This document shows positions 12,448-56,742 of a stretch of DNA of 62,453 bases, piece by piece. The notes under the pieces are model-generated. The model did not search any database. It was not told the DNA's origin and worked only from the letters and a program-made list of their open reading frames with translations. The stretch covers positions 1 through 62,453 of the forward strand of contig CANSQX010000001.1 in NCBI GenBank assembly GCA_947649225.1. The letters are read 5' to 3'. Within the stretch, counting starts at the first letter, position 1. Every line of letters begins with the position of its first letter. Source of the DNA: an uncultured Flavonifractor sp. (GTDB lineage: Bacteria; Bacillota; Clostridia; Oscillospirales; Oscillospiraceae). The position numbers and the translations under genes were made by a program.

Positions 12448-14295
12448 ATGAGAAAATGGACCTGGCTGGGACGCTTGCTGGCGGGCACGCTGGCGCTGTC
12501 CCTGCTGGCGGGCTGCAGTGGAGGCGGAGCCCCAACGGAGCAGGCCGCGTCGGCAGCGCGGGAGCAGGTCACGGTCGCCTTCTGGAGCGACCAGCTGACA
12601 GAGCGCTATGGGCAGTATCTCCGGGACAGCTTTCCGGAGGTGGAGTTTGAATTTTACGTCATCACCAATTCCACGGACTTCTACCGCTTCAAGGCGGAGC
12701 ACGGGGACCTGCCGGATATTCTGACCGTCCGGCGCTTTTCCCTGAACGATGTTGCCCCCTGGCGGGACGAGCTCATCGATCTGAGCGGCACCGGCCTCGC
12801 CAATACCTTCCACCAGTCCTATCTGCGCAGCTACACCTACAGCGACGGCACGGTCAACTGGCTTCCCGCCTGCGCGGAGGTGGACGGCCTTCTGGTCAAC
12901 CGGGCCCTGATGGAGGAACACCACATCCCCATTCCCTCCACCCGCCAGGAGTTCATGGAGGCCTGCGCCGCCCTGAAGGCGCTGGGCATCCGGCCCTTCC
13001 GCTCCAACTTCAATGCGGACTACACCTGTATGGAGATCCTGCAGGGGCTCTCCATCGCACAGCTGTCCACCCAGGAGGGCCGGGAGTGGCGGCAGCGCTA
13101 TGAGAGCGGCCAGACAGACCAGCTGAGCGAGGCGGTCTGGCTGCCCGTCTTTGAGGAGCTGGAGGCCTTTCTCTCCTATGCCGGCGTGGTCCCGGCGGAT
13201 CTGGAGGGGGATACCGCCGCCGTCTTCGACGCCTACCGGCAGCGCGAGGTGGCGGTGATCCGCGGCACCAGCGCCGAGGCCAGCCGCTACGGCGCAGAGG
13301 GCATATCGGTCATGATCCCCTACTGCGGGGAGACGGAGGAGGACGGCTGGTATCTGACCTATCCGGCCTTTCAGGTGGCGGCCAGCGTCCGGGCGGAGGA
13401 GCGCCCGGAGCGGCAGGCGCTGATCCTGGAGATTCTGACGGCTATGCTGGGGCAGGAGGGGCTGCGGTGCATTGCAACCGGAGAAAACATGATCGCATAT
13501 AATAGGGGGGTGGAGCTGGCGCTCTCCTCCGTCTTGTGTGAGCTGCCCCCCTATGCGGACCGCAACCGGCTGTATATCCGCCTCGCCTCCTCGGACATGT
13601 TTTCGGTCTCCAGGCAGGTGGTCCAGGGGATGATCACAGGGGAATACCCGGACGCACGGTCCGCCTTTGACGCCTTTAACGCAGCCATGCAGGCGCCCGC
13701 CGGGGCAGAGGCGCCCGCCGTTCATCTGGACACCGGCTATTCCTACGCTTTCCGTCCCGACGGCGGCAGTGCGGCTGCCTCCGCCGTCCTGAACTCCCTG
13801 CGGGAGGAGCTGGACGCCGAACTGCTGATCGGCCAGTCGGTCAACGTCGCCGGCAGCGTCGCCGCCGGGGATTACACTGAGGCCGAGCTCCACTACCTGA
13901 CCATGGGCGAGTCCATCGACCTGCTGCACTGCGAAATGACGGGGGAGCAGCTGTACCGCTATGTGGAGCTTCTGCTGGCGGCGGACGGCAGGCAGGGCGC
14001 GGTCATCAACGACTCCACCCTCTATGTGTCCAGCGGCTTCGAGATGGAGATCCGGCGGACGGAGGACGGCTATGCGCTGGAGCGGCTGACGGCCGGCGGC
14101 CAGCCGCTGGACCTGGCGCAGACCTACTCCGTCACGGTGCTGGGCAATGAGCGGATGCTCCAGAGCGAGCTCCTGGCCGGGGCGGGCGTCACAGCCTTCG
14201 GCCGGGAGGAACGCGCCTACAAGCAGATTATCGTGGACCGTCTGCTGGCGGGCCGGCCGCTTGCCGCCCCCACGGACTATATCACACTCCGATGA
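12448..14295 (+). CDS. Extracellular solute-binding lipoprotein (ABC family-1-like) with a roughly 190-aa C-terminal extension
   Basis: Lipobox LALSLLAGCSGG. VAFWSDQ...DLPDILTVRRF...NWLPACAEVDGLLVNRALMEEHHIPIPSTRQEFMEACAALKALGIRPF is SBP-like. It lies immediately upstream of a sensor kinase. Confidence 0.8.
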   Translation: MRKWTWLGRLLAGTLALSLLAGCSGGGAPTEQAASAAREQVTVAFWSDQLTERYGQYLRDSFPEVEFEFYVITNSTDFYRFKAEHGDLPDILTVRRFSLNDVAPWRDELIDLSGTGLANTFHQSYLRSYTYSDGTVNWLPACAEVDGLLVNRALMEEHHIPIPSTRQEFMEACAALKALGIRPFRSNFNADYTCMEILQGLSIAQLSTQEGREWRQRYESGQTDQLSEAVWLPVFEELEAFLSYAGVVPADLEGDTAAVFDAYRQREVAVIRGTSAEASRYGAEGISVMIPYCGETEEDGWYLTYPAFQVAASVRAEERPERQALILEILTAMLGQEGLRCIATGENMIAYNRGVELALSSVLCELPPYADRNRLYIRLASSDMFSVSRQVVQGMITGEYPDARSAFDAFNAAMQAPAGAEAPAVHLDTGYSYAFRPDGGSAAASAVLNSLREELDAELLIGQSVNVAGSVAAGDYTEAELHYLTMGESIDLLHCEMTGEQLYRYVELLLAADGRQGAVINDSTLYVSSGFEMEIRRTEDGYALERLTAGGQPLDLAQTYSVTVLGNERMLQSELLAGAGVTAFGREERAYKQIIVDRLLAGRPLAAPTDYITLR

Positions 14296-23996: not shown

Positions 23997-24152
23997 GGCG
24001 GTCCGGCGGCCGGCGCTCTTTGGGGCTTCCATCATAAAAAATGACGAAAATTGTACAGAAAATAGGGGCAAATTTCGGGTACTCTGTTATACAATGGAGC
24101 AGGAATTCTGAATCAAACCGGCCGGTTCACCCGGCCAGTGGGAGGATGCTCT

Positions 24153-25397
24153 ATGACAGCCCAGGAGACCTATCAGGCCCGCCTGAAGCGGGTGAGCGAT
24201 GCCATCAGCCTCAACCAGCCCGACCGGGTGCCCATTGTGCCCGCGGCCAGCGCCCTGCCCTTCTTCCTCACGGAGGACACCACCTACCGGGACGCCATGT
24301 ACGACTTTCCCAAGGCTTCCCGGGCCATCTACGCCTTCTGCCGGGATTTTCAGCCGGACGCCTTCAACGGCCCCGCCCTGACCAGCGGCCGGGCCAACGA
24401 GCTGGCGGGCTCCACCATGATCGACTGGCCGGGCCGCCCGGGCACCCGGGTGCCCGACTGGTCCACCCACCAGTGCTTCGAGTTTGAGTACCTCCAGGAG
24501 GACGAGTACCCAGAGCTGCTGCGGGATTTTACCGGCTTTATGCTCCGCAAGTACATCCCCCGGGCCTTCCCGGGGCTCAAGGGGCTGGAGAGCGTCCGCT
24601 TTGTGCCCTCCATCGTACTGAGCACCGGGGTGCTGGGGGGCCTGTATACCCCCGGGGCCCTGGCGGCCTATGATACCCTGCGGGAGATCGGCAAACACGA
24701 CGGCGAGGCGAGAGCGGAGTATGCCAGGCTTCTCGCCTCCCTCCAGGAGGAGCTGGGCCTGCCCCTCATGTGGGGAACCTATGGGGAGGCCCCCTTCGAC
24801 ATCCTCAGCGACTACTACCGGGGCACCATGGGGACCTTCCAGGACCTGGCCGAGCAGCCAGAGCACATTGCCGCCACCTGCGACCTGTTCGCCGATCTCC
24901 AGATCGAGAGGTTCCGCAGCCTCACCGAGGCGGAGCTGCCGGTGCGCCGGATCAACTTCCCCATGCACAAGGGCATGGACGGCTTCATGAGCCCCCAGCA
25001 GTACACAGAGCTCTACTGGAAGCCCCTGAAAAAAGTCCTCAACGCCCTGATTGCGATGAATATCACTCCCATCCTCTATACCGAGGGCCCCTACGACACC
25101 CGGGTGGAGCAGCTGTGCGATCTGCCCCGGGGCAAGGTCCTGGTCCACTTCGAGCAGGCCGACATGGCCCGGGCCAAGCGGCTCCTGGGGGACACCTGCT
25201 GCCTCAGCGGCAACGTCCCGGTCTACCTGCTGGAGCACGGCAGCCGGGCGGAGGTGTCCGATGCGGTCAAGGGACTGCTGGACACCTGCGCCCCCGGCGG
25301 CGGCTATATCCTGGACACCGACTGCTGCATCGAGAACGCCAGGCGGGAAAACCTGGAGGCCATGTTTGAAACCGCCCTGACCTACGGCGTCTATTGA
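24153..25397 (+). CDS. Uroporphyrinogen-decarboxylase (URO-D) superfamily protein (methyltransferase/decarboxylase-like)
   Basis: QETYQARLKRVSDAISLNQPDRVPIV... and the C-terminal DTCAPGGGYILDTDCCIENARRENLEAM are typical of URO-D/MtaA-like proteins. ATG at 24153 after gggagga. Confidence 0.75.
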   Translation: MTAQETYQARLKRVSDAISLNQPDRVPIVPAASALPFFLTEDTTYRDAMYDFPKASRAIYAFCRDFQPDAFNGPALTSGRANELAGSTMIDWPGRPGTRVPDWSTHQCFEFEYLQEDEYPELLRDFTGFMLRKYIPRAFPGLKGLESVRFVPSIVLSTGVLGGLYTPGALAAYDTLREIGKHDGEARAEYARLLASLQEELGLPLMWGTYGEAPFDILSDYYRGTMGTFQDLAEQPEHIAATCDLFADLQIERFRSLTEAELPVRRINFPMHKGMDGFMSPQQYTELYWKPLKKVLNALIAMNITPILYTEGPYDTRVEQLCDLPRGKVLVHFEQADMARAKRLLGDTCCLSGNVPVYLLEHGSRAEVSDAVKGLLDTCAPGGGYILDTDCCIENARRENLEAMFETALTYGVY

Positions 25398-36197: not shown

Positions 36198-36245
36198 AGT
36201 TGTGCTATAGTGATTTTCAATCTATAAAATTGTATACATTATTGT

Positions 36246-37918: not shown

Positions 37919-38932
37919 ATGACTGCCATGTATACCGAGCGCGAGAACTTTCTGCGGACCCTGTCCGGCGACCACCCGGACCGCTTCGTCAACGAGTGGG
38001 AGCCCTTCGAGCTCATCGGCGACGACCCCCTGATCGTCCACACCCGGGGCGGCGTGCGGAAAAAAGGCACCCACCTCCACGATATCTTCGGCACCTATGT
38101 CATGTTCCCCGAGGACCAGAATTTCGCCATGCCCCATGTGACCGACGGCTGCAAGGCCCTGCCCGACATCACCGCGTGGCGGGACTATGTGAAAAAGCCC
38201 GACCTCTCCCCGGCGGACAAGGATGAGCTGTGGGCCCCGGTCCTGGAGCGGGTCAACGCCGTGGACCGGAACGAAAAGCTGGTCATGGGATTTATGGAGA
38301 CCGGCCTCTTTGAGCGCATGCACTACCTGATGGGCTTTGAGGACACCCTGTGCAACCTGCTGATGGAGCCCGAGTCCTGCCAGGAGCTCCTCCAGCTGCT
38401 CCTGGAGTACAAGCTGGAGTACGCCAAGATCCTCATCGACCGCATCCACCCCGACATCATCCTGTCCCACGACGACTGGGGGGAGAAGATCCGCCTGTTC
38501 ATGAGCCCCGACGTGTGGCGGGAGTTCTTCAAGCCCCTCTATACCGAGCTCTACGGCTACATCAAGTCCCGGGGCGTGCTGGTCATGCACCACGCCGACT
38601 CCCACTGCGCCGACATTGTCGAGGATATGCCCGAGGCCCACATCGACGTGTGGCAGGGCTGCCTGCCCGAGAACGACATCCCCGCCCTCCAGGCGCGCCT
38701 CAAGGGGAAGATGACCCTGATGGGCGGCGTCAACGTGGCCCTGGTGGACACCGTGTACGCCACTGAGGACGTGATCCGGGCGGAGGTGCGCCGGGTCTGC
38801 GCCGAGTACGGCCCCGGCGGGTACTTCATCCCCTGCATCACCTACGGCGGCATCGGCTCCATCTACCCCCAGGTGGACGGCATCGTCAAGGACGAGATCG
38901 CCAAGTGCAGCCCCCTGTATTTTAAGAGCTGA
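37919..38932 (+). CDS. URO-D superfamily protein (second copy in the window)
   Basis: ERENFLRTLSGDHPDRFVNEWEPF... and ...LSHDDWGEKIRLFMSPDVWREFFKPLYTELYGYIKSRGVLVMHHADSHC...GGYFIPCITYGG. The start may instead be the ATG at 37928. Confidence 0.75.
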   Translation: MTAMYTERENFLRTLSGDHPDRFVNEWEPFELIGDDPLIVHTRGGVRKKGTHLHDIFGTYVMFPEDQNFAMPHVTDGCKALPDITAWRDYVKKPDLSPADKDELWAPVLERVNAVDRNEKLVMGFMETGLFERMHYLMGFEDTLCNLLMEPESCQELLQLLLEYKLEYAKILIDRIHPDIILSHDDWGEKIRLFMSPDVWREFFKPLYTELYGYIKSRGVLVMHHADSHCADIVEDMPEAHIDVWQGCLPENDIPALQARLKGKMTLMGGVNVALVDTVYATEDVIRAEVRRVCAEYGPGGYFIPCITYGGIGSIYPQVDGIVKDEIAKCSPLYFKS

Positions 38933-42771: not shown

Positions 42772-42885
42772 ATGAATTGGGCATATGCCAGCATCATCCA
42801 ATCCTTGGCCCTGGCCGTGGTGATGAACCTGGTCTGGATCGGCATCTACAAGCTGACCAGCCGGGGCCGGAACAAGGAGGACTGA
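42772..42885 (+). CDS. 37-aa single-TM micro-protein downstream of the symporter
   Basis: aaggaggtaatcct-ATG. MNWAYASIIQSLALAVVMNLVWIGIYKLTSRGRNKED. Too short for the ORF track. Confidence 0.5.
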   Translation: MNWAYASIIQSLALAVVMNLVWIGIYKLTSRGRNKED

Positions 42886-42887
42886 AC

Positions 42888-42995
42888 ATGGTTATTTTTG
42901 TCGCCTGCTATCTCATCGCCGTGATGGTGATCCTGGGCATCTGGGGCGTCATCGCCTACCGCAAACAGGCGGAGCGGGGCGAAATCGATCTCTAA
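42888..42995 (+). CDS. 35-aa single-TM micro-protein (symporter small accessory protein-like)
   Basis: ATG 2 nt after the previous stop, with aaggagga inside the upstream ORF. MVIFVACYLIAVMVILGIWGVIAYRKQAERGEIDL. Confidence 0.55.
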   Translation: MVIFVACYLIAVMVILGIWGVIAYRKQAERGEIDL

Positions 42996-43039
42996 CATAC
43001 CGCGCGGGCCCCGCCTGAGCGGACGCCCCCGCATTTCCG

Positions 43040-44248: not shown

Positions 44249-44641
44249 ATGGACGACTGTTCCGACCGCATTCTGACCTGCAAGCTGGCGGGGCTCTCCT
44301 GCTCCCAGACCGTGATGAAGCTGGTGGGGCTGGAGCCCCGGGGAGAGGAGGGCGAGGCCCTGATCGCCGCCATGGGCGGCCTGTCCTATGGGATGCTCTG
44401 CCAGCATACCTGCGGGTGCCTCACCGGCGCGGCCTGCGCTCTGGCCCTCTACGCCCCCTCCAAGGAGACGCTGGCCGGATGGTGCCGGGAGCTGGACGAG
44501 TGGTTCACCGGCCGCTTCGGCGCGGCCTCCTGCCGGGAGCTGGTGGGCGAGGGGGCCAAAAATCCCGCCCTCTGCCTGGAATTCATCCGTGAGACGGTGG
44601 ATTACTGCCTGGAGCTCCTGGACGACGCGGATCTCCTGTGA
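44249..44641 (+). CDS. C_GCAxxG_C_C family four-cysteine protein
   Basis: LSCSQTVM...CGCLTGAACAL...ASCRELVG...ALCLEFI fits the C-GCAxxG-C-C pattern. ATG at 44249 after aaaggagg. Confidence 0.8.
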   Translation: MDDCSDRILTCKLAGLSCSQTVMKLVGLEPRGEEGEALIAAMGGLSYGMLCQHTCGCLTGAACALALYAPSKETLAGWCRELDEWFTGRFGAASCRELVGEGAKNPALCLEFIRETVDYCLELLDDADLL

Positions 44642-45297
44642 GCATGGGCGAAAATCCCTACGAGCGTTCCGGCTGGCGGGGGCGGCTCCGCCCCGGCGGA
44701 GACGCTCTGACCGGGCATCTGCTGGAGGAATCCGGGCTCCCTGCGGGGGCCCGGATTCTGGACGTGGGCTGCGGAATGGGGGACTCCTGCGCCCTGCTCC
44801 GGGATCGGGGGTACGAGGCCCTCGGACTGGACAGGAGCGCTCCGCTGATCGCCCGGGGGCTGGCCCGGCGGCCCGATCTCCCGCTGGCCGTGGGGGACGG
44901 GGCCCGGCCTCCCTTCCCGCCCGGCTCCATGGACGCCCTTTTGATGGAGTGCGCCCTCTCCGCCATGGACGCTCCCGCCGTCCTGGCGGGCTGCGTCCCC
45001 CTGCTCCGGCCCGGCGGCCGGCTCCTCCTCGCCGATCTCTACGCCCGGGGGACGGAGGACCTTCGCCGGGCCCCGGCGCTCCGCACCCGCCCGGGGCTGG
45101 AGGCCCTGCTGGCCGCCTGCGGCCTGCGCATTCTGGCCTTTGAGGACCACACCCGGGCCCTGGGGGAGTTCGCAGGCCAGCTGCTGCTGGACGGCGGGGA
45201 TCTGTCCGCACTGCTCTGCCGCCCCATGTCTGAATTTCGCGCCGCCCGGGCGGGCTACTGCCTGCTCTGGGCCCGCCGGGAGGGGGAAGCCCTGTGA
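44638..45297 (+). CDS. Class I SAM-dependent methyltransferase
   Basis: Motif I RILDVGCGMGDS, then LGLDRS, and LRPGGRLLLADL. The GTG at 44638 overlaps the upstream TGA (an alternative ATG is at 44644). Confidence 0.8.
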   Translation: MSMGENPYERSGWRGRLRPGGDALTGHLLEESGLPAGARILDVGCGMGDSCALLRDRGYEALGLDRSAPLIARGLARRPDLPLAVGDGARPPFPPGSMDALLMECALSAMDAPAVLAGCVPLLRPGGRLLLADLYARGTEDLRRAPALRTRPGLEALLAACGLRILAFEDHTRALGEFAGQLLLDGGDLSALLCRPMSEFRAARAGYCLLWARREGEAL

Positions 45298-46637
45298 AAA
45301 CCGTCAAGCTGCGCCCGCTGGAGGAGACCCTGGCCGCCACCTCCGCCCTGTGTCCGGTATGCCTCAAAACCCTGCCCGCCCGCCGGGTCCGGCGGGGGAG
45401 GCAGGTCTTTTTGGAGCGCGTCTGTCCCGATCACGGCCCATTCTCCACCCTGATCTGGAACGGCGCGCCCGCCTATGGGGCCTGGGGCGGCCCCGCCGCC
45501 CGGGAGGGGGTATCCATCGAAGCGGCCGGGGACTGCCCCCGGGCCTGCGGGCTGTGCGGAGACCACCGCCGCCCCACCTGCTGCCTGCTGTTCGAGGTCA
45601 CCCAGCGGTGCAATCTGGGCTGCCCGGTATGCTACGCGTCCTCCGGCCCGGAGGCCCCCGCCGATCCCACCCTGGAGGAGCTGGACCGGTGGTATGACGC
45701 GGTGCTGGATCAGAGCGGGCGGTGCAACCTCCAGCTCTCCGGCGGGGAGCCCACCGTCCGGGACGACCTGAGCGATGTGATCGCCCTGGGAAAGGCCAAG
45801 GGCTTTCCCTATCTCCAGCTCAACACCAACGGCCTGCGGCTGGCCGCCCAGGGGGACTATGCGGCGCAGCTGAAGGACGCCGGGCTGGACTGCGTGTTTT
45901 TGCAGTTTGACGCCGTGGAGGACGCCGCCTATACGGCCCTCCGGGGCCGGCCGCTGCTGGCGGAAAAGCGGGCGGCGGTGGAGGCCTGCGCCGCCGCCGG
46001 GCTGGGGGTGGTGCTGGTGCCCACCCTGGTCCCCGGCGTCAACGACGGTCAGCTCGGCGCGATTGTGGGCTACGCCCTCTCCCGGATGCCCGCCGTGCGG
46101 GGAGTCCACTTCCAGCCTATGAGCTACTTCGGCCGCTGGCCTGCAGGGCGGGACCCGATCCGGCTCACCCTTCCCGACGTACTCCGCCTGCTGGAGTCGC
46201 AGACCGGCGGGCGGATGCAGGCCGCCCACTTCAAGCCGGGGACGGCGGAAAATCCCTACTGCTCCTTCAACGGGGCCTATCTGCTGGAGCCAGACGGGGG
46301 CCTCTCCCCCCTCAAGCCCCGGCAGGGGTGCTGCTGCGGGAGCGGGGAGCCCGGCCGCTCCGCCGTCGCCCGGGCCCAGGGGTATGTGGCCCGCCAGTGG
46401 GGCCGGGACGGCCGGGCGGACAGGCCCGGCCTGCGCCTGCGCAGGCCCGAATCCCTGGACGAATTCCTGGAGCGGTCCCGGCAGTATACCCTGGCCATAT
46501 CCGGCATGGCCTTCATGGACCCCTGGACCGCCGACCTGGCCCGGCTGCGGGAGTGCTACATCCATGTGATGAAGGACGGGGCCCGCATTCTCCCCTTCTG
46601 CGCCTGCAATCTCTTCCACCGGGAGGCACAGCCGTGA
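45294..46637 (+). CDS. Radical SAM enzyme with an N-terminal zinc-ribbon
   Basis: CPVCLKTLPARRV...VCPDHG ribbon. Cluster motif EVTQRCNLGCPVCYA (Cx3Cx2C). LQLSGGEPTVRDD SAM-binding strand. GTGA overlap with the upstream gene. Confidence 0.85.
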   Translation: MKTVKLRPLEETLAATSALCPVCLKTLPARRVRRGRQVFLERVCPDHGPFSTLIWNGAPAYGAWGGPAAREGVSIEAAGDCPRACGLCGDHRRPTCCLLFEVTQRCNLGCPVCYASSGPEAPADPTLEELDRWYDAVLDQSGRCNLQLSGGEPTVRDDLSDVIALGKAKGFPYLQLNTNGLRLAAQGDYAAQLKDAGLDCVFLQFDAVEDAAYTALRGRPLLAEKRAAVEACAAAGLGVVLVPTLVPGVNDGQLGAIVGYALSRMPAVRGVHFQPMSYFGRWPAGRDPIRLTLPDVLRLLESQTGGRMQAAHFKPGTAENPYCSFNGAYLLEPDGGLSPLKPRQGCCCGSGEPGRSAVARAQGYVARQWGRDGRADRPGLRLRRPESLDEFLERSRQYTLAISGMAFMDPWTADLARLRECYIHVMKDGARILPFCACNLFHREAQP

Positions 46638-47884
46638 GGCCCACCCCGCTGGAGCCCTGGATCGCGGCTAAGACGGGGGGGACGTTGCGCCGCTGGCAGC
46701 TGGACCGGCTGAACGAGACTCTGGACCGGGCCCGGCGGAGCCCCTTCTACCGGAGCCGCCTGCCCGCCGGGGTGGACAGCCTGGAGGACCTGGCCGCTCT
46801 GCCCCTGACGGCGGCGGCGGACCTGCGGGCCCAGGGGACCGGGCTGGTCTGCGTACCCCAGCGGGAGATCGCCCGCATCGTCACCCTGCCCACCAGCGGC
46901 TCCACCGGCGCGCCTAAGCGGATCTATTTCTCTGAAGCGGATCTGGAGCGGACAGTGGACTTTTTCCACCACGGGCTGACCACCCTGGTCCGGCCGGGGG
47001 ATCAGATGCTCATCGGCTATCCCTGTGGCACGCCGGGGGGACTGGGGGCGCTGATCGGCACGGCGCTGGAACGGATTCCCGCCCGGTCCATCCCCCACGG
47101 GCCCGTGACCTCCTACCAGGCGGCGGCGGAGCTGCTGAGCCGGACCGGGTGCCAGACCCTCGTGGGCTTTCCGGTGCAGCTGCTGGCCCTGGCGAAGTAC
47201 TGCGCCGCACAGCGCATCCCCTGCCGGGTGCGGGCCGTTCTCCTCAGCGCCGACACGGTGACACAGGCCGTCCGCAGCGGCCTGCGGGCCCTCTGGGGCT
47301 GCGAGGTCTTCGAGCACTACGGCATGACCGAGACCGGACTGGGGGGCGCGGTGGACTGCGCGGCCCACGCGGGGCTCCACCTCCGGGAGAACGACCTGCT
47401 GGCGGAGATTGTGGACGGGGGAGGCCGCCCCGTCTCCGACGGCACGGAGGGCGAGATCGTGATCACCACCCTGACCCGGACCGCCATGCCCCTGATCCGC
47501 CTGCGCACCGGGGACCAGGCCCGGATTCTGCCGGGGGTCTGCCCCTGCGGCTCCCCCCTGCGGCGGCTGTCGCCCCCCCGGCGGCGGGAGAGCGGGCCTC
47601 TCTCCCTGCCGGAGTGGGACGAGGCCCTGCTCCCCCTGGCCGGTCTGGCCGACTTCCGGCTCACCCTGGCGGGGAGCACCGTCATCCTGGAGGCCGAGCA
47701 CCCGGACGTCCTGCCCCCCCTCTCCGCGCAGGAGGTGGAGGAGGCCGTCCGCTCCCTGGTCCCCGGCGGGATGGAGCTGAGAATTGCGATCCTCCAGACG
47801 GGGGATCGCCCGGTGCTGCATCCGGGCTGCAAGCGGCTGATCCGGCGGGAGGGAGGTGGACGGCCATGCGGCGGCTCTATCTGA
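46634..47884 (+). CDS. Adenylate-forming enzyme, phenylacetate-CoA ligase/F390-synthetase-like
   Basis: SPFYRSRL...LPLTAAADLR...TLPTSGSTGAPKRIYFSEADLE...FEHYGMTETG...LIRLRTGD. GTGA overlap with the radical SAM stop. Confidence 0.85.
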   Translation: MRPTPLEPWIAAKTGGTLRRWQLDRLNETLDRARRSPFYRSRLPAGVDSLEDLAALPLTAAADLRAQGTGLVCVPQREIARIVTLPTSGSTGAPKRIYFSEADLERTVDFFHHGLTTLVRPGDQMLIGYPCGTPGGLGALIGTALERIPARSIPHGPVTSYQAAAELLSRTGCQTLVGFPVQLLALAKYCAAQRIPCRVRAVLLSADTVTQAVRSGLRALWGCEVFEHYGMTETGLGGAVDCAAHAGLHLRENDLLAEIVDGGGRPVSDGTEGEIVITTLTRTAMPLIRLRTGDQARILPGVCPCGSPLRRLSPPRRRESGPLSLPEWDEALLPLAGLADFRLTLAGSTVILEAEHPDVLPPLSAQEVEEAVRSLVPGGMELRIAILQTGDRPVLHPGCKRLIRREGGGRPCGGSI

Positions 47885-48513
47885 TCCGGCACGCCCAGCC
47901 GGAGGGGGACGGAGTCCCCCGCTTTCTGGGTCAGGGGAACCCGCCCCTCTCCCCCCGGGGCCGGGCGGAGGCCCGCCGTCTGGGGGCCTATCTGCGGCCG
48001 TTCCCTCCGGAGGCGGTGTACTGCTCCCCGCTGCTGCGCTGTGTGGAGACCGCCCGCTTTCTGACCCCCTCGCCCACCCCCGTCCCCGGCCTGGAGGAGA
48101 TCGATCTGGGGGCTTGGGAGGGCCTGCCCCGGGCGGAGGTCCGCGCCCGCTTTCCGGAGCTCTACGCGGCCCGGGGCCGGGACATCGCCCACTGCGCCCC
48201 GCCGGGCGGGGAGCGCTTCACCCAGGCGGCAGCGCGCGCCTGGGCCGCCCTGTCCGCCCTTCTGGCGTCCACCCGGGGGGATCTGGCGGTGGTGGGCCAC
48301 GCGGGGATCCACCGCACGATCCTCTGTACCGCCTTACACCGGCCGCTGGGGACGCTGCTGGACATTCCCCAGCACTACTGCGGTGTCTCCGTCCTCCGGG
48401 TCACGGAGGACGGACTGGAGCCAGAGACCATCGACGAAATCCTGTGGAGGCCGGGACCCCGGAACGGCGCGCCCGGCCCGCAAAGGGAGGAACACACATG
48501 GAAAAGCTGCTGA
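47866..48513 (+). CDS. Histidine phosphatase family protein (CobC/PhoE-like)
   Basis: RLYLIRHAQPEG...LSPRGRAEA...YCSPLLRCVETA...VVGHAGIHRTIL. The ATG at 47866 overlaps the ligase gene by 19 nt. Confidence 0.8.
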   Translation: MRRLYLIRHAQPEGDGVPRFLGQGNPPLSPRGRAEARRLGAYLRPFPPEAVYCSPLLRCVETARFLTPSPTPVPGLEEIDLGAWEGLPRAEVRARFPELYAARGRDIAHCAPPGGERFTQAAARAWAALSALLASTRGDLAVVGHAGIHRTILCTALHRPLGTLLDIPQHYCGVSVLRVTEDGLEPETIDEILWRPGPRNGAPGPQREEHTWKSC

Positions 48514-49463
48514 ACACCTGCGCCGCGTGGCTGGAGGCCGGAACCCCCCTGGCCCTGGCCCTGATTGTGGAGCGCCATGGCCCGGCCCCCCGGGGCGCGG
48601 GGACCATGATGGCGGTCCGGGGGGACCGGACCATCGCCGGGACCGTGGGGGGCGGCCTTCTGGAGGCCCGGGCCGTGGAGGCCGGACTCCGGGTGCTGGA
48701 GACCGGGGGCGGCGCGATGCTCCCCTTTGACCTCACCAGCACCGACGCCGCCCAGTCGGGCATGATCTGCGGCGGGTCCGGGCGGATGATCGTGCTGCGG
48801 GTCCTCCCCGGGGATCTGCCGGTGCTGGCCGCCGCCCGGGACGCCGCCCTCTCCGGCGGCCGGGGGGCCCTGGCGATCCAGTGGGGCCCGGACGGCGCGG
48901 CCCCCTGGACCCTCTCCTTTGCGGAGGAGGCGGGCCAGGAGGGCCTGCGCGCCCTGCCCGGAGGGGGCGAGGGCTACCTCCTCCCTGTCCGGGGCGGGGG
49001 GCAGCTGCTGATCTTCGGGGCGGGCCATGTCTCCCGGGAGATCGCCGCGCTGGCCGTCCGGCTGGGCTTCCGGGTGACGGTGCTGGACGACCGGGCGGAG
49101 TTCGCCAGTGCCGGACGCTTTCCGGGCTGCACGGTGGAGGTGCTCCCCGATCTGGACCACCCCCCCGCCCGGACGCTGAACGGGGACGACTCGGTGATCA
49201 TCGCCACCCGGGGCCACCTCCACGACCTGAACTGTCTGGCATGGACCCTGCGCACGGGGGCGGGGTACGTGGGCATGATCGGCAGCCGCCGGAAAAAGGG
49301 GCTGGTGTTCGCCGCACTGGAGGCCCAGGGCATCCCCCGCACCGCCCTGGAGCAGGTCCATACCCCCATCGGCCTGGACATCCAAGCCCAGACCCCGGAG
49401 GAGATCGCGGTCAGCATTGCGGCCGAGCTGATCCAGTGCCGGGCCGCCCGCCGTGGGGGCTGA
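48498..49463 (+). CDS. xdhC: XdhC/CoxI-family molybdenum cofactor insertion chaperone
   Basis: ALALIVERHGPAPRGAGTMMAV...GTVGGGLLEA, and the Rossmann-like LLIFGAGHVSREIAALAVRLGFRVTVLDDR...ATRGHLHD...YVGMIGSRRK. RBS aaagggagg. Confidence 0.85.
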   Translation: MEKLLNTCAAWLEAGTPLALALIVERHGPAPRGAGTMMAVRGDRTIAGTVGGGLLEARAVEAGLRVLETGGGAMLPFDLTSTDAAQSGMICGGSGRMIVLRVLPGDLPVLAAARDAALSGGRGALAIQWGPDGAAPWTLSFAEEAGQEGLRALPGGGEGYLLPVRGGGQLLIFGAGHVSREIAALAVRLGFRVTVLDDRAEFASAGRFPGCTVEVLPDLDHPPARTLNGDDSVIIATRGHLHDLNCLAWTLRTGAGYVGMIGSRRKKGLVFAALEAQGIPRTALEQVHTPIGLDIQAQTPEEIAVSIAAELIQCRAARRGG

Positions 49464-50616
49464 GCGCCCCCTGGGGGCCGTCCTGACGGCGGCGGGCCGC
49501 TCCGTCCGGATGGGCCGTTGGAAGCCCCTGCTTCCGGTGGGGGGCGTCCCCCTGCTGGAGACGGGGATCCGGGCCCTGCGGGCCGGGGGCGTCCAGCGGA
49601 TCTATGTGGTCACCGGGCACCGGGCGGAGGAGCTGCGGCCCCTGCTGGCGCGCCTGGGGGCGGAGGAGGTCCACAACCCGGACTACGCCCGGACCGATAT
49701 GTTCGCCTCGGTGCGGCTGGGGCTGGAGCGGGCGGCGCAGGACTGCGGGGCGGTTTTTCTGCTCCCCGGGGACGTGGCTCTGTTCCGGTCCCACAGCGTC
49801 CGCACGATGGAGCAGCTGCGCCGGGCGCGGGGGGCGGAGCTTGTGATCCCCCGCTTCCGGGGAGAGCGGGGGCACCCGGTGCTGCTGAGCCCGGCCTGCA
49901 TAGCCCACGCGCTGGCCTGGAGCGGCGCAGGGGGCCTGCGGGGGGCGCTGGACGCCTTCTCCGGTCCCCGGGAGCATGCCGATCTCCCCGACCCCGGCCT
50001 GCTGCTGGACGCCGACACCCCGGCGGATTTTCAGCGGCTGCTGGACTACCGCCGGGTCCGGGGGATCCCGGATCGGGCTCTCTGTATGGACCTGCTGGCC
50101 TGGGCGGGCACGCCCCCGGAGGTGGTGCGCCACTGTGAGGCGGTGGCGCGGACCGCCCTAGCGCTGGCCGAAGCGGTCAACGCGGAGGGCGGACGGCTCA
50201 GCACCCGGCTGGTGCTGGCGGGGGCGCTGCTCCACGACATCGCCAAAAAAAGCCCCCGCCACGACCGGGCGGGGGCGGAGCTGCTTCGTATGCTGGACTG
50301 TCCGGCGCCGGCGGCCGTCGCGCAGGCCCATATGACCCTGCCGCCCGGGGCGGCGGACCGGCTGGACGCGCGCAGTCTGGTCTACTATGCCGACAAAATC
50401 ACCTGGGGGACCCGCCGGGTGGCGCTGGCGGACCGCTTTGCCGGGCTGGAGGCCCGCTTTGCAGGGGCCCCGGCCGCTCTGGCCGCCGCACGGCGGCGCT
50501 ATGCGGATGCGCGGCGGGTGGAGGATCGGATCCGGCAGGCGGGGGGCTTTCCTCAGTCCACGCCGCAGTTGCACGGGCCGCCCTCGTGGCTGGCGCAGCC
50601 CGTGCCCCCCACGTAG
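49453..50616 (+). CDS. MocA-like molybdenum cofactor nucleotidyltransferase fused to an HD-domain
   Basis: GAVLTAAGRSVRMGRWKPLLPVGG...FLLPGDVALF...GHPVLL (MobA/MocA fold), then ...LLHDIAKK...HDRAGAELL (HD motif). The GTG overlaps the xdhC end. Confidence 0.8.
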   Translation: MGAERPLGAVLTAAGRSVRMGRWKPLLPVGGVPLLETGIRALRAGGVQRIYVVTGHRAEELRPLLARLGAEEVHNPDYARTDMFASVRLGLERAAQDCGAVFLLPGDVALFRSHSVRTMEQLRRARGAELVIPRFRGERGHPVLLSPACIAHALAWSGAGGLRGALDAFSGPREHADLPDPGLLLDADTPADFQRLLDYRRVRGIPDRALCMDLLAWAGTPPEVVRHCEAVARTALALAEAVNAEGGRLSTRLVLAGALLHDIAKKSPRHDRAGAELLRMLDCPAPAAVAQAHMTLPPGAADRLDARSLVYYADKITWGTRRVALADRFAGLEARFAGAPAALAAARRRYADARRVEDRIRQAGGFPQSTPQLHGPPSWLAQPVPPT

Positions 50617-51090: not shown

Positions 51091-51119
51091 TTGTCAACCG
51101 GGCGCAGATGTATTATAAT
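51091..51119 (+). promoter_or_regulatory. Promoter TTGTCA-N17-TATAAT of the aldehyde oxidoreductase gene
   Basis: ttgtca at 51091..51096, 17-nt spacer, tataat at 51114..51119. Confidence 0.6.
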
Positions 51120-54259: not shown

Positions 54260-56497
54260 TTGACGCGGGAAGAAGTCTTTGCCTATACTGCGGGCTGCTA
54301 CAGCGGCGAGCCCGCCTCCTGCACCTTTGCCTGTCCCTTTCGGGTGGATCTGCGCTCCGTGCTGAAAAAGGCGGGGCGAGGCCGGTGGAACGCCGCCGCC
54401 AAGGAGCTCTCTGCCGCCCTGCCCTTCCCGGCGGTGGTTCACGCCCTCTGCCCCCGGCCCTGCGAGGGGGCCTGCCAGCGGCGCACCGTCCTGGGGGAGG
54501 AGCCCGTGGCCATCGGCCTCATTGAGGCGGTCTGCCTGCGGGCCGGGGTCAAGAAGGAGCGGGCGGCCTATACCCTGCCCCCCCTCCCCCAGCGGGCGGC
54601 GGTGGTCGGCGCGGGACCGGCGGGGCTGGCCTGCGCCCTGGCCCTGGGCCGCAAGCGCTACGCCGTGACCGTCTTCGAGCGGGCGGAGGGCTGGGGGGGC
54701 TCCCTGCGGGCCCACCCCCAGTTCGCCGCCTTTGACGCAGACTTTACCCAGCGGTTTTCCTCGCTCGAAATCAACTTTCAGTATACAACCACAGTCGCTT
54801 CCCTGGACGAGCTGGCGGAGTACGACGCGATCTTTCTCGCCTCCGGGGCGGACGGCGCGGATTTCGGCCTGCTGGCGGGGTGGAACGCCGATCTGGGCTC
54901 CACGGCGGACCCCCGGGTCTTTCTGGGGGGCGGGCTGGCCGGGTTCTCCGCCGTGGAGGGCATGGCCCACGCGCTCCAGGCCGCCCGGGCCATGGAGTCC
55001 TATCTCCAGTCGGGGAATCCGGCCTATGCCGGCGAGGACTGGGACCGGAGCAAGTGTACCCGGTACGCCCCCCACCCGGACGAGCCTCCCCTTCCCCATG
55101 TGGTCCCGGCGGGGGAGGCCTATACCGAGGAGGAGGCCCAGGCCGAGGCGGGACGCTGTATGCAGTGCGACTGCGAGGCCTGCATGGGGGCCTGCGAGCT
55201 GCTCCAGACCTACAAGAAAAAGCCCCCCCGCATTGCCATCGACGTGGCCCAGGACGGCCAGACCCGCAACTCGGTGAGCTCGGCCTGCATCACCCGGCAG
55301 ACCTGGTCGTGCAGCCAGTGCGGGCGCTGCGCCGCCCAGTGCGGCGAGGGGGTGGATCTCCAGGGGCTGTTTGCGCTCTCCCGCCGGGACCGGGTGGCGG
55401 GCGGGGCCTATCCCCCCGCGTTCCACGGCTACCGGCTCCAGGAGCTGGCCCACGCCGCCGGTCCGGCCAGCCTGGTCAAGCCCGCGCCCGGCCGGACGGA
55501 GTGCCGGTACGCCTTTTTCCCGGGCTGCCGTCTGGGCGGGGCCAATCCGGCCTATGTGGAGCGCTCCTTCGCCGTCCTCCAGGAAACGCTGGGCGGGGCA
55601 GGGATTCTGCTCAACTGCTGCGGCGTTCCCGCCCTCTGGGCGGGGGAGGAGGCCCGCTTCCAGGCCCACCTGGAGCGGCTCCGGGCGGACTGGGCCTCCA
55701 TCGGGCGGCCTACTCTGGTCTACGCCTGCGCCGCCTGCCGCCGGACCCTGGCCCGCTTTCTCCCTGAGATCCCCTTGATCTCCCTCTATGAGCTGCTGGC
55801 GCCCGCCGCCGGGGCCCCGCCCTTCCCGGAGCTGGCGGTGTTCGACCCCTGTGCCGGGGCGGACCTGGGGGAGGTCAAGGCGGCGGTGCGGTGGCTGGCC
55901 GCCGGGAGCGGCATCAAGCCAGCGGACTACGACAGCGACGGGAAGTGCTGCGGCTTCGGCGGCCACATGGAGCTGGCCAACCCGGCCCTCTACGACGCAA
56001 TCGCCGCCCACCGCTGCGCCGGGACGGAGCACCCCTTCCTGGTCTGGTGTGTGAACTGCGGCGAGGTGTTCCGGGCCCGTGGCAAGGACTGCGTCCACAT
56101 CCTGGATCTGGTCTTCGGGCTGAGCCCCGGGGCCCTGCCCACTCTGGATGAAAAGAAGACCAACCATCTGAAGGCAAAGGAGGCGCTGCTGCGCATGTAC
56201 TGGCAGGAGGACTTTACCGCCCCGCAGAACCCCTGGGACGCCCTGGAGGTGGCGCTCCCGCCGGAGGTGCAGGAGAAGATGGAGCGCCGCCTGATCCCCC
56301 TCTCCGATGTGAAGGAGACCATCTGGCGCAACGAGGAGGCGGGCGAGGGCTTTGTCAACGAGGCGGGGGACGTGGTGTGCCGCATGGCGGGTCCCTATCT
56401 CACCTGCTGGGTCAGCTACCGGAGAGACGGGGCGATCTTCCGGATCGCCGACGTATATGCGCACCGGATGCACATCCGGGAGGACGGGGAGGGTTAA
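54260..56497 (+). CDS. Fusion oxidoreductase: GltD-like NAD(P)H/FAD module plus 2x[4Fe-4S] ferredoxin motifs plus two HdrD/GlpC-type CCG domains
   Basis: CPRPCEGACQR, AAVVGAGPAGLACALALG, CMQCDCEACMGACE, CSQCGRCAAQCGEG, FFPGCRLGG...NCCGVP, FDPCAGAD...KCCGFGG. TTG start after aaaggag. Confidence 0.85.
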   Translation: MTREEVFAYTAGCYSGEPASCTFACPFRVDLRSVLKKAGRGRWNAAAKELSAALPFPAVVHALCPRPCEGACQRRTVLGEEPVAIGLIEAVCLRAGVKKERAAYTLPPLPQRAAVVGAGPAGLACALALGRKRYAVTVFERAEGWGGSLRAHPQFAAFDADFTQRFSSLEINFQYTTTVASLDELAEYDAIFLASGADGADFGLLAGWNADLGSTADPRVFLGGGLAGFSAVEGMAHALQAARAMESYLQSGNPAYAGEDWDRSKCTRYAPHPDEPPLPHVVPAGEAYTEEEAQAEAGRCMQCDCEACMGACELLQTYKKKPPRIAIDVAQDGQTRNSVSSACITRQTWSCSQCGRCAAQCGEGVDLQGLFALSRRDRVAGGAYPPAFHGYRLQELAHAAGPASLVKPAPGRTECRYAFFPGCRLGGANPAYVERSFAVLQETLGGAGILLNCCGVPALWAGEEARFQAHLERLRADWASIGRPTLVYACAACRRTLARFLPEIPLISLYELLAPAAGAPPFPELAVFDPCAGADLGEVKAAVRWLAAGSGIKPADYDSDGKCCGFGGHMELANPALYDAIAAHRCAGTEHPFLVWCVNCGEVFRARGKDCVHILDLVFGLSPGALPTLDEKKTNHLKAKEALLRMYWQEDFTAPQNPWDALEVALPPEVQEKMERRLIPLSDVKETIWRNEEAGEGFVNEAGDVVCRMAGPYLTCWVSYRRDGAIFRIADVYAHRMHIREDGEG

Positions 56498-56500
56498 GGC

Positions 56501-56698
56501 ATGGAGCAGGAATTGAGCGGCTGGATGTGCCGCAAATGCGGCAAGCCCCTGGTCAAGGAGAAGGTGGTCTTCGACTACCTGGGCCATACCTTCAGCGAGG
56601 CGCTGCTCCGCTGTCCCGTCTGCGGCCGCGCCCTGATCCCCGGCGATCTGGCCGAGGGCAAAATGGCCGAGGTGGAGACCATGCTGGAGGACAAATAG
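56501..56698 (+). CDS. 65-aa zinc-ribbon/rubredoxin-like protein
   Basis: CRKCGKPL...CPVCGRAL (two CxxC pairs). RBS ggaggg. It starts 3 nt after the upstream stop. Confidence 0.6.
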   Translation: MEQELSGWMCRKCGKPLVKEKVVFDYLGHTFSEALLRCPVCGRALIPGDLAEGKMAEVETMLEDK

Positions 56699-56704
56699 CA
56701 GAAA

Positions 56705-56742
56705 CGGGACGGCATACACGATGTATGCCGTCCCGCTTTGTT
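56705..56742. terminator. Bidirectional rho-independent terminator
   Basis: cgggacggcatac-acgat-gtatgccgtcccg followed by CTTTGTT, with gaaa upstream. Confidence 0.8.

Follow-up and report, generated by a model that had tools for sequence, protein, structure and literature searches.

A seven-gene block beside a Mop-type aldehyde oxidoreductase in an uncultured Flavonifractor sp., and its probable place in a conserved maturation gene set

Why should a molybdenum-dependent aldehyde oxidoreductase be accompanied by a radical S-adenosylmethionine (SAM) enzyme, an adenylate-forming ligase, and a SAM-dependent methyltransferase? This question is raised by a 62,453-nt stretch of DNA from an uncultured Flavonifractor sp. 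(assembly GCA_947649225.1, contig CANSQX010000001.1; hereafter, the window), in which seven plus-strand genes at positions 44249-50616 precede the gene for a 945-aa Mop-type enzyme (Mop). A reading of this region made from the sequence alone (the sequence-only reading) had proposed that the seven genes form an undescribed system for tailoring the molybdopterin cytosine dinucleotide (MCD) cofactor of this enzyme. From the analysis described here, we lean towards the view that they serve as the accessory, or maturation, operon within a system for aldehyde oxidation that has ten core genes and a lineage-specific eleventh, and we consider it very probable that this accessory set is dedicated to maturation of the Mop system.

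The seven reading frames and their overlaps were as the sequence-only reading had described them. The frames contain no internal stops, have a GC content at third codon positions of 0.87 to 0.92, and overlap at each junction, by 4, 4, 4, 19, 16, and 11 nt in order, with GTGA start/stop overlaps at 44638, 45294, and 46634. A clear GGAGG-type Shine-Dalgarno sequence is found ahead of five of the seven genes, and an alternative start is possible for the methyltransferase at ATG 44644, 2 bases past the upstream stop. When the scores of Pfam and NCBIfam models were set against their curated cut-offs, the gene identities and every named domain were confirmed as well, including those of the 945-aa Fer2/MoCoBD oxidoreductase (Table 1). 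The block is thus real, but the system does not end with it: it runs past Mop, through genes for an FeS flavoprotein and a small zinc-ribbon protein of the DVU_1557 family, to position 56698.

We found one window protein for each of nine NCBIfam models (NF045645, NF045646, and NF045663 to NF045669), which carry the names DVU_1551, DVU_1553, DVU_1555, DVU_1556, DVU_1557, TrsS, XdhC_rel_AOR, diclust_near_Sec, and pterin_aldehy. Six of the nine proteins score over the curated cut-off and three just under it, namely, the C_GCAxxG_C_C protein with the DVU_1555 model NF045669 (82.4 versus 103), the XdhC protein with NF045664 (XdhC_rel_AOR, an aldehyde oxidoreductase maturation factor; 308.7 versus 350), and Mop with NF045668 (pterin_aldehy; 1084.2 versus 1100), the last having the expected single-chain architecture without an FAD domain. 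The five DVU names, which the sequence-only reading had given, are therefore real models that match proteins of this system, although the DVU_1557 protein is encoded by a separate small gene outside 44249-50616. Dedicated and near-consecutive models for nine proteins mean that the neighbourhood had already been catalogued; PMC13188914 includes TrsS among selenoprotein families and cites for it Haft and Tolstoy (mSystems 10:e0141724, 2025). The term "undescribed" thus does not fit a set that is known to curators, and the window is a permuted new example of it. Our literature search on DVU1550-1560 and the family names returned no discussion of, or experiment on, the accessory genes; proteome tables alone list DVU_1559, as Aor.

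To place the window among its relatives, one genome per species was scanned with a TrsS profile, which gave at least 592 matches. The best 80 loci (45 to 55% identity) were analysed; they span many phyla, including Bacillota, Desulfobacterota, Chloroflexota, Acidobacteriota, Nitrospirota, Spirochaetota, and Actinomycetota. Gene content was counted, using family hidden Markov models built from clustered reading frames, in those 49 loci, from about ten phyla, whose flanks reached 9 kb or more upstream and 6 kb or more downstream. Mop was present in 41 of these 49 loci and lay just beyond the locus edge in 2 more, and the flavoprotein (44 loci), DVU_1557 (45), the methyltransferase (45), the C_GCAxxG_C_C protein (46), and the ligase (46) were similarly frequent. 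The MocA-HD protein, XdhC, and the histidine phosphatase were found in 34, 33, and 32 loci, respectively. Among all 80 loci, the ligase gene immediately adjoins TrsS in 72 to 74. The association of these genes is far beyond chance, and the set recurs in the 80 loci with its order permuted; permuted order with the set kept is also seen in Desulfovibrio gigas, Clostridium sp. SY8519, Sporobacter, and loci L165 and L169. Lateral sharing of the set is plausible. The sequence-only reading would have been refuted had the quartet of radical SAM enzyme, ligase, methyltransferase, and C_GCAxxG_C_C protein usually been found without a molybdenum hydroxylase; in these counts the quartet co-occurs with Mop-type enzymes. 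TrsS loci that truly lack Mop (L004, L022, L034, L060, L072, and L073) have unrelated neighbours (chemotaxis, PAS/LuxR, serpin, and FtsX genes), which argues that there is no alternative partner enzyme.

We also carried out the reverse test with a Mop profile in a metagenome sample, which gave 80 single-chain Fer2-MoCoBD genes, 8 of them true Mop orthologues and 72 remote (27 to 35% identity). A flavoprotein gene adjoins Mop in all 8 orthologues, and genes of the quartet are on the contig in L085, L086, L087, L088, and L091, with the contigs of L089 and L090 ending too soon. The set of quartet and flavoprotein was found at none of the 72 remote enzymes in this sample. Eight further Mop loci were obtained by exact protein look-up, and the full set is present in new permutations in those of D. 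gigas, Clostridium sp. SY8519, Sporobacter termitidis, and L169. Local carriage of the set is not universal among Mop-type enzymes. In L082 and L168 (P0173 and P0175), a Mop paralogue that is 63% identical to the window Mop lies by genes for UbiD/UbiX/LpdD, a CoA-transferase, and a Zn-dependent alcohol dehydrogenase (Zn-ADH), and no flavoprotein, DVU_1557, TrsS module, MocA, or XdhC gene was found within 10 kb.

Two modules can be distinguished among the accessory genes. Module A, which comprises the quartet, is the constant companion of Mop, the flavoprotein, and DVU_1557. Module B consists of MocA-HD, XdhC, and the phosphatase, and from these protein families we infer a role in the synthesis and insertion of MCD. 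The sequence-only reading had grouped the phosphatase with the radical SAM enzyme, adenylase, and methylase. In the 49 loci, however, the phosphatase is found only where MocA-HD is present (32 of 32; table [[15,2],[0,32]], Fisher p = 9e-11), and in L029 (8886-9989) a histidine phosphatase is fused to the HD domain and MocA is encoded separately, so the HD domain is tied to the phosphatase at least as strongly as to MocA. Together these findings place the phosphatase in module B and not in the radical SAM set.

In the window MocA-HD protein, an NTP_transf_3 domain (residues 9-167) is followed by the HD domain (residues 225-330). The protein is below the cut-off of the MocA model TIGR03310 (119.3 versus 186 bits), and it carries the motifs LTAAGRSVRMG (TAAGxSxRMG) and RGHPVL (GHP). 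Motifs of this TAAG/GHP type, as Neumann is said to have reported in 2011, confer CTP specificity in MocA. The MocA domain would join the CMP of CTP to Mo-molybdopterin to give MCD, and XdhC would hold this cofactor until its insertion into apo-Mop. The presumable task of the HD domain and the CobC-like phosphatase is to hydrolyse a phosphorylated nucleotide that arises, as an intermediate or by-product, when MCD is made. The narrower label of CobC alpha-ribazole phosphatase was rejected, since the score with TIGR03162 was 125.4, below the cut-off of 162.9. Module B resembles the maturation systems of Escherichia coli PaoABC (PaoD and MocA) and of Rhodobacter capsulatus (XdhC with NifS4) in having an XdhC chaperone and a MocA-type enzyme by an MCD enzyme (PMC13653126), and 17 related loci also have a NifS-like desulfurase. 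It differs from them in the fusion of MocA to HD and in the companion CobC-like phosphatase, and module A has no counterpart there.

What, then, does module A act on? Stable tailoring of MCD by the radical SAM enzyme, ligase, methylase, and phosphatase was the answer of the sequence-only reading, and the enzymology is indeed typical for cofactor biosynthesis, in a set that co-occurs with MocA, XdhC, and Mop. This answer is disfavoured by the D. gigas enzyme. From the alignment to its PDB entry we rebuilt the sequence of D. gigas MOP, found an identical database protein, and retrieved its locus. The genes there are, in order, a MoCF-domain gene, MOP, nitroreductase, flavoprotein, DUF7479, methyltransferase, C_GCAxxG_C_C, TrsS, ligase, XdhC, and phosphatase. 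D. gigas MOP is represented by 11 PDB entries, and its cofactor was defined as MCD, with pterin rings of "amazing definition" at 1.28 Å (PMC10223205). Permanent decoration of MCD would have shown in these structures; thus, with D. gigas mop in the same cluster and its cofactor plain MCD, stable tailoring is quite improbable, and in all likelihood module A leaves no stable modification on this cofactor. That the phosphatase tracks MocA-HD, and not TrsS, also counts against such tailoring. In contrast, a change on the flavoprotein or DVU_1557, neither of which has ever been purified, or a labile ligand of molybdenum, would have escaped the D. gigas structures. The enzyme was purified without the products of the neighbouring genes and neither has nor needs a sulfido ligand. 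A history from 2023 holds its flavin partner to be "missing," models it with flavodoxin, and regards the lack of that ligand as exceptional (PMC10223205). In a term search, radical SAM was mentioned neither in that history nor in the D. gigas genome paper (PMC4287179), and operon or gene cluster was not mentioned in the former.

A further point raised in favour of pterin chemistry is the name of the ribbon domain of TrsS, PF23545, which refers to a supposed pterin methylase. We found that the nearest solved structure to TrsS is that of the tetraether lipid synthase GDGT-MAS/Tes (MJ0619; PDB 7TOL; 255 bits, 28 to 29% identity), and that an AlphaFold2 model of TrsS (pLDDT 81) gave Foldseek TMq values of 0.76 to 0.78 with 7TOM/7TOL, the next best being MoaA at 0.42. 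Three motifs are invariant: a rubredoxin-type site, C x2 C x20 C x2 H (C20/C23/C44/H47); an N-terminal auxiliary-cluster motif, CX3CX2C plus His (C81/C85/C88/H91); and the radical-SAM CX3CX2C motif (C106/C110/C113). The third is CNLGCPVC, which the sequence-only reading had mistaken for an N-terminal Zn ribbon; the ribbon is C20xxC23...C44xxH47. In addition, C421 and C436 align to C-terminal cluster cysteines of GDGT-MAS, and the likeness in fold extends over the whole length of TrsS, including the rubredoxin site, the N-terminal cluster, the radical-SAM motif, and the C-terminal PFC / xC cysteines (PMC9433317). By sequence and model, TrsS is a GDGT-MAS/Tes-fold enzyme and not a pterin methylase. 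Lloyd et al. found that the pterin-methylase activity once assigned to MJ0619 was not reproducible and that the structure makes it unlikely; they showed MJ0619 to be GDGT-MAS, which couples C(sp3) to C(sp3) via a carbon-sulfur(cluster) intermediate (PMC9433317). Since MJ0619 is GDGT-MAS, the "HMPTM" in the name of the ribbon, which stands for 7,8-dihydro-6-hydroxymethylpterin dimethyltransferase, a class D radical SAM methylase, is no evidence for pterin chemistry, and the lead offered by the name Zn_ribbon_HMPTM was dropped with its founding member reassigned.

With GDGT-MAS/Tes as its best characterised homologue and structural match, TrsS might instead be a bacterial Tes-type synthase of membrane-spanning lipids that lies near Mop incidentally. 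We regard this as highly improbable. TrsS scores below the cut-off of the Tes model NF045702 (305.2 versus 450) and has an equivalog model of its own, and the second lipid pocket region of GDGT-MAS (residues ~333-450) appears to be replaced in TrsS by a shorter, Cys-rich segment (the alignment of the two halts at residue 318 and restarts at 396, and pLDDT is low at 343-353). Across about ten phyla, TrsS stays linked to Mop, the flavoprotein, MocA, and XdhC, and there are no conserved lipid-biosynthesis genes nearby. Its bacterial host and its molybdoenzyme context also set it apart from GDGT-MAS/Tes.

The window TrsS has no in-frame TGA (selenocysteine) codon, and no credible one was found in the TrsS and C_GCAxxG_C_C genes of the 80 loci, where the one case in TrsS (L043) is at a Gly and not a Cys position; we thus dropped the position of selenocysteine as a guide to the catalytic residue. 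Fusions of TrsS were found with the methyltransferase (P0051), with MocA (P0034), and with DUF5714. An unannotated domain of ~100 aa, without a Pfam or NCBIfam match, is encoded directly upstream of TrsS in Sporomusa-type loci (e.g., L006 9655-9966) and is fused to TrsS in Blautia and relatives (P0097, P0099, and P0089) via Cys-rich repeats (CDGTADCC...), which suggest metal binding. For the C_GCAxxG_C_C protein, a PDB sequence search was empty, and a single-sequence model had a pLDDT of 58 and hence was not used for a fold search.

The ligase contains TSGSTGAPK, and its family consensus retains the P-loop, YGxTE, RYRTGD, and C-terminal KR, i.e., all adenylation motifs. Its closest PDB matches are the PaaK structures 4R1L and 2Y27. 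Phenylacetate-CoA ligases are thus its closest characterised relatives, and the NCBI family name is "AMP-dependent CoA ligase," so the genes could also constitute a catabolic or detoxifying substrate pathway, in which Mop oxidises an (aryl)acetaldehyde-type substrate, the ligase makes the CoA thioester, and TrsS and the methyltransferase act on the same metabolite. An aldehyde oxidoreductase followed by PaaK is a known order in anaerobic phenylalanine degradation, and alcohol dehydrogenases from different families flank the cluster (Zn-ADH in the window, L081, L082, and L166; Fe-ADH in 8 loci). Such a pathway is nevertheless improbable. The ligase shares with PaaK the fold class alone, being far under the PaaK models (TIGR02155, 102.8 versus 646; NF041878, 131.5 versus 700), and it is bound to TrsS and not to Mop, since it adjoins or overlaps TrsS in nearly all of the 80 loci and stays when Mop is absent. 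In the window, moreover, its gene belongs to the same run of overlapping genes as those for XdhC and MocA. The conserved set has no genes for a thioesterase, beta-oxidation, or ring reduction, and the stoichiometric cleavage of SAM would be costly for catabolism.

The candidate target that we favour for module A is a non-pterin component of the Mop complex. The flavoprotein, in which Pfam detects Fer4_20, NAD_binding_8, Fer4_17, and CCG domains, is the probable electron acceptor of Mop, and by the numbering of the families its D. vulgaris counterpart would be DVU_1558; a literature search for an HdrD/CCG partner of an aldehyde oxidoreductase returned nothing. Its gene is separated by a 3-nt spacer from that of the DVU_1557 protein, and the two are fused, with DVU_1557 at the flavoprotein C terminus, in at least six representatives (P0421, P0447, P0452, P0453, P0486, and P0488), all of which end in LEDK. 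LEDK is terminal in 41 of the 41 aligned DVU_1557 family members; many of the best 150 representatives were eukaryotic zinc-finger repeat proteins, which were set aside as noise. Across related loci the DVU_1557 gene sits 1 to 3 genes upstream of TrsS, and L169 has two copies, one directly before TrsS. We tried and rejected the idea that DVU_1557 is a LysW homologue, as the match to 5K2M_E was insignificant (E = 0.56) and the conserved set has no ATP-grasp gene.

For module A we infer carboxylate-directed chemistry, in which the ligase would adenylate and the methyltransferase would O-methylate; among the weak relatives of the DVU_1556-type methyltransferase are enzymes that O-methylate carboxyl groups (BioC, Mtf2, and Tam). 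TrsS would activate a C-H bond at an unactivated carbon by radical chemistry; the intermediate would be of the C-S(cluster) or C-C kind, on the model of GDGT-MAS. The component matured in this way would most likely be DVU_1557 itself, or else a group borne on the invariant, acidic LEDK-COOH end of this subunit, which would dock on, or is fused to, the flavoprotein. On balance we judge this two-module maturation reading, as a whole, somewhat more probable than otherwise; that DVU_1557 or the flavoprotein is the target is a tentative proposal only. More doubtful still is the nature of the product, which might be a hitherto unseen redox-active group for anaerobic aldehyde oxidation, either protein-borne, on the LEDK tail of DVU_1557 or on the flavoprotein and of the pyrroloquinoline quinone (PQQ), mycofactocin, or cysteine tryptophylquinone type, or a ligand of molybdenum that is lost on purification.

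Several findings weigh against this reading. The well-flanked loci L034, L060, L072, and L073 have TrsS and the ligase and no DVU_1557, flavoprotein, or Mop within 10 kb, and conversely Mop, the flavoprotein, and DVU_1557 occur without TrsS nearby in L092, L166, and L167 (L092 and L167 with C_GCAxxG_C_C). DVU_1557 may simply carry electrons in the manner of rubredoxin, without any need to be modified, and its insignificant similarity to LysW lends no weight to a carrier role. The MocA-TrsS fusion (P0034) points to the molybdenum cofactor (Moco) and not to DVU_1557, and module A genes are interleaved with those for XdhC, MocA, and NifS-like, MoeA-like, and NifX/ORP-like proteins. In 17 loci (e.g., L006 8538-9665), the interval from MocA-HD to TrsS contains a gene for a NifS/SclA-like pyridoxal phosphate-dependent enzyme that resembles cysteine desulfurases and selenocysteine lyases (TIGR01977, 345 bits; SclA, 259 bits), and in 14 loci, as in D. 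gigas, Mop comes after a MoeA/MoCF-domain gene. The desulfurase loci are of the L006-L017 type, from Sporomusa/Negativicutes.

The same fusion and interleaving speak for a different site of action, namely, that module A acts on Moco or the Mo site, by transient chemistry or by building a labile S-, Se-, or carbon-based ligand on XdhC-bound Moco. Such a group could be lost on aerobic purification, which would explain why the crystallised D. gigas enzyme is without it. TrsS and the C_GCAxxG_C_C protein are selenoproteins in some species, judged from the family names, and the D. gigas enzyme is anomalous in lacking the sulfido ligand and in its "desulfo/slow" signals (PMC10223205). In split clusters (the window, L060, L072, and L073), TrsS and the ligase remain with MocA-HD and the phosphatase, a point of limited use, because accessory genes cluster whichever subunit they serve and operon splitting thus does not discriminate between the readings. 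On the other side, the 11 PDB entries and the 1.28-Å structure show MCD, oxo, and water ligands only (PMC10223205), Moco offers no carboxylate for the ligase to activate, and module A is without a local MocA or XdhC in 15 of the 49 loci. Action on the Mo site is thus a serious possibility that we nonetheless hold to be rather unlikely.

Maturation by module A, as we favour it, has analogies among known systems. The Hcg proteins, which make the FeGP cofactor, include a radical SAM enzyme, a guanylyltransferase, a SAM methyltransferase, and an adenylating enzyme, and in QhpD/QhpC, PqqE/PqqA, and MftC/MftA a radical SAM enzyme acts on a peptide or small subunit, which thereby becomes the redox cofactor of dehydrogenases. 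The classes of enzyme (radical SAM, nucleotidyltransferase, methyltransferase, and adenylating enzyme) match those of the accessory genes, and a small protein with an invariant C terminus likewise accompanies a radical SAM enzyme and a dehydrogenase. There is no homology beyond the superfamily level, so the resemblance would be one of possible working and not of membership.

The D. gigas enzyme was the first crystallised member of the xanthine oxidase family and has been studied for about 40 years. Its gene, in D. gigas and across about ten phyla, is embedded in a fixed set with a dedicated FeS flavoprotein (with an HdrD-like module), a small zinc-ribbon subunit, and module A. If module A is required, the physiological enzyme would be a larger and differently matured complex than the one characterised, and the Tes/GDGT-MAS fold would have a bacterial, non-lipid function. 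If module A does build a redox group or labile ligand, the textbook D. gigas enzyme, with no flavin partner and no sulfido ligand, would be an incomplete one. The window adds a permuted example only; what is of interest concerns the family as a whole and can be put to a direct test in Desulfovibrio. The gene set of the window matches those of D. gigas and the 80 other loci of the DVU_1551-DVU_1559 neighbourhood, and it differs in having the accessory block upstream of Mop as a separate unit, the Cys and not the selenocysteine form of TrsS, and an extra NifX/ORP-like gene.

Table 1. Positions of the genes and predicted sites of the Mop system in the window, with the evidence for each
Feature	Position	Strand	Evidence or remark
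Zn-dependent alcohol dehydrogenase, 365 aa	43105-44202	+	Pfam ADH_N, ADH_zinc_N; in-frame ATG with AGGAGG Shine-Dalgarno
C_GCAxxG_C_C four-Cys protein, DVU_1555-like, 130 aa	44249-44641	+	PF09719, 59.6 (cut-off 27)
DVU_1556-family class I SAM methyltransferase, 219 aa	44638-45297	+	NF045667, 179.9 (cut-off 155)
Radical SAM protein TrsS, Cys form, 447 aa	45294-46637	+	NF045646, 573.9 (cut-off 490), residues 15-445
DVU_1553-family PaaK-like adenylate-forming ligase, 416 aa	46634-47884	+	NF045666, 401.5 (cut-off 300)
Histidine phosphatase, CobC-like, 215 aa	47866-48513	+	PF00300 (His_Phos_1), 162
XdhC-family Moco chaperone, 321 aa	48498-49463	+	XdhC_C, 145.8; XdhC_CoxI, 70.5
DVU_1551-family MocA-like cytidylyltransferase with HD phosphohydrolase domain, 387 aa	49453-50616	+	NF045665, 349.8 (cut-off 315)
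NifX/MTH1175/ORP-like small protein, 122 aa	50553-50921	-	Cys/His-rich C-terminal tail GGTGCASHEGGPCNCG; homologues in related clusters
Promoter-like site TTGTCA-17-TATAAT	51091-51119	+	11/12 consensus positions; precedes Mop
Divergent promoter-like site	51139-51112	-	
Perfect 10-bp palindrome TTGTATACAA, then TCATGTGTACAA	51133-51142		Shortly after the -10 hexamer ahead of Mop
Mop-type molybdenum aldehyde oxidoreductase, 945 aa	51214-54051	+	2x[2Fe-2S] and MCD-binding domains; Fer2/MoCoBD; full-length matches to PDB 1DGJ and 1SIJ/1VLB, ~795 bits
FeS flavoprotein, 745 aa: GltD/NfnB-like FAD and [4Fe-4S] part fused to HdrD-like dicluster/CCG domain	54260-56497	+	NF045663 (diclust_near_Sec), 595.8 (cut-off 530)
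DVU_1557-family (DUF7479) 2xCxxC zinc-ribbon protein, 65 aa, ending in LEDK	56501-56698	+	NF045645, 87.7 (cut-off 60); PF24292, 91.6
Terminator-like hairpin, 14-17-bp stem	56705-56735	+	Closes the Mop unit

The window appears to have two transcription units, the accessory block and Mop-flavoprotein-DVU_1557, because a promoter-like site precedes Mop and a hairpin follows the DVU_1557 gene. The sequence-only reading had the block attached to Mop; the two do belong to one system, but they are separated by an interval of 597 nt that contains a minus-strand gene as well as the promoter-like site. The Zn-ADH gene ends 46 nt upstream of the block and is probably the first gene of its transcript. The palindrome TTGTATACAA may be an operator. 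Its sole other near-match in the window, at 36230, is upstream of an AraC-type gene.

The minus-strand gene, which has a divergent promoter-like site to itself, shares 64 nt with the 3' end of MocA-HD. Its product is 54% identical to that of a gene within the cluster of the closest relative, and homologues were found in 8 further clusters; it is the lineage-specific eleventh member of the system. The family profile matches PDB 1RDU, 1EO1, 2QTD, and 2WFB, the last being the D. gigas Mo/Cu "orange protein," and PF02579 is matched by 6 of 8 family members, so that by profile the gene is assigned to the Nitro_FeMo-Co superfamily. No homology was found between it and the gene at the corresponding position in Clostridium sp. 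SY8519.

The window Mop is part of a sister clade of 945-aa Clostridia enzymes and shares 79% identity with the enzyme of Clostridium sp. SY8519; for the window TrsS, ligase, methyltransferase, and MocA, identity to the SY8519 counterparts is only 30 to 37%. The seven-gene block is also richer in GC (73.4%) than the Mop unit (67.8%) and the window (64 to 66%), with the excess at codon positions 1 and 2. The accessory block and the Mop half thus seem to have had separate histories. No SelD, YqeB/YqeC, or further Moco genes were found in the rest of the window, and an Rfam scan of the whole window gave no Moco riboswitch and no other known RNA.

The order LysR, sodium:solute symporter (SSF), ADH, and Mop is common to the window, Clostridium sp. 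SY8519, and L166. Two tiny hydrophobic reading frames of 37 and 35 aa (42773-42886 and 42889-42996, plus strand) follow the symporter gene in the window, and genes of 34 to 40 aa likewise follow it in L081 and L166, which makes LysR-SSF-small reading frames-ADH-Mop a conserved context of the Clostridia clade. Two URO-D/MtaA-like genes lie elsewhere in the window (24138-25397 and 37919-38932, both plus strand), and a URO-D-like gene (12906-13901) is found between Mop and the flavoprotein gene in L166.

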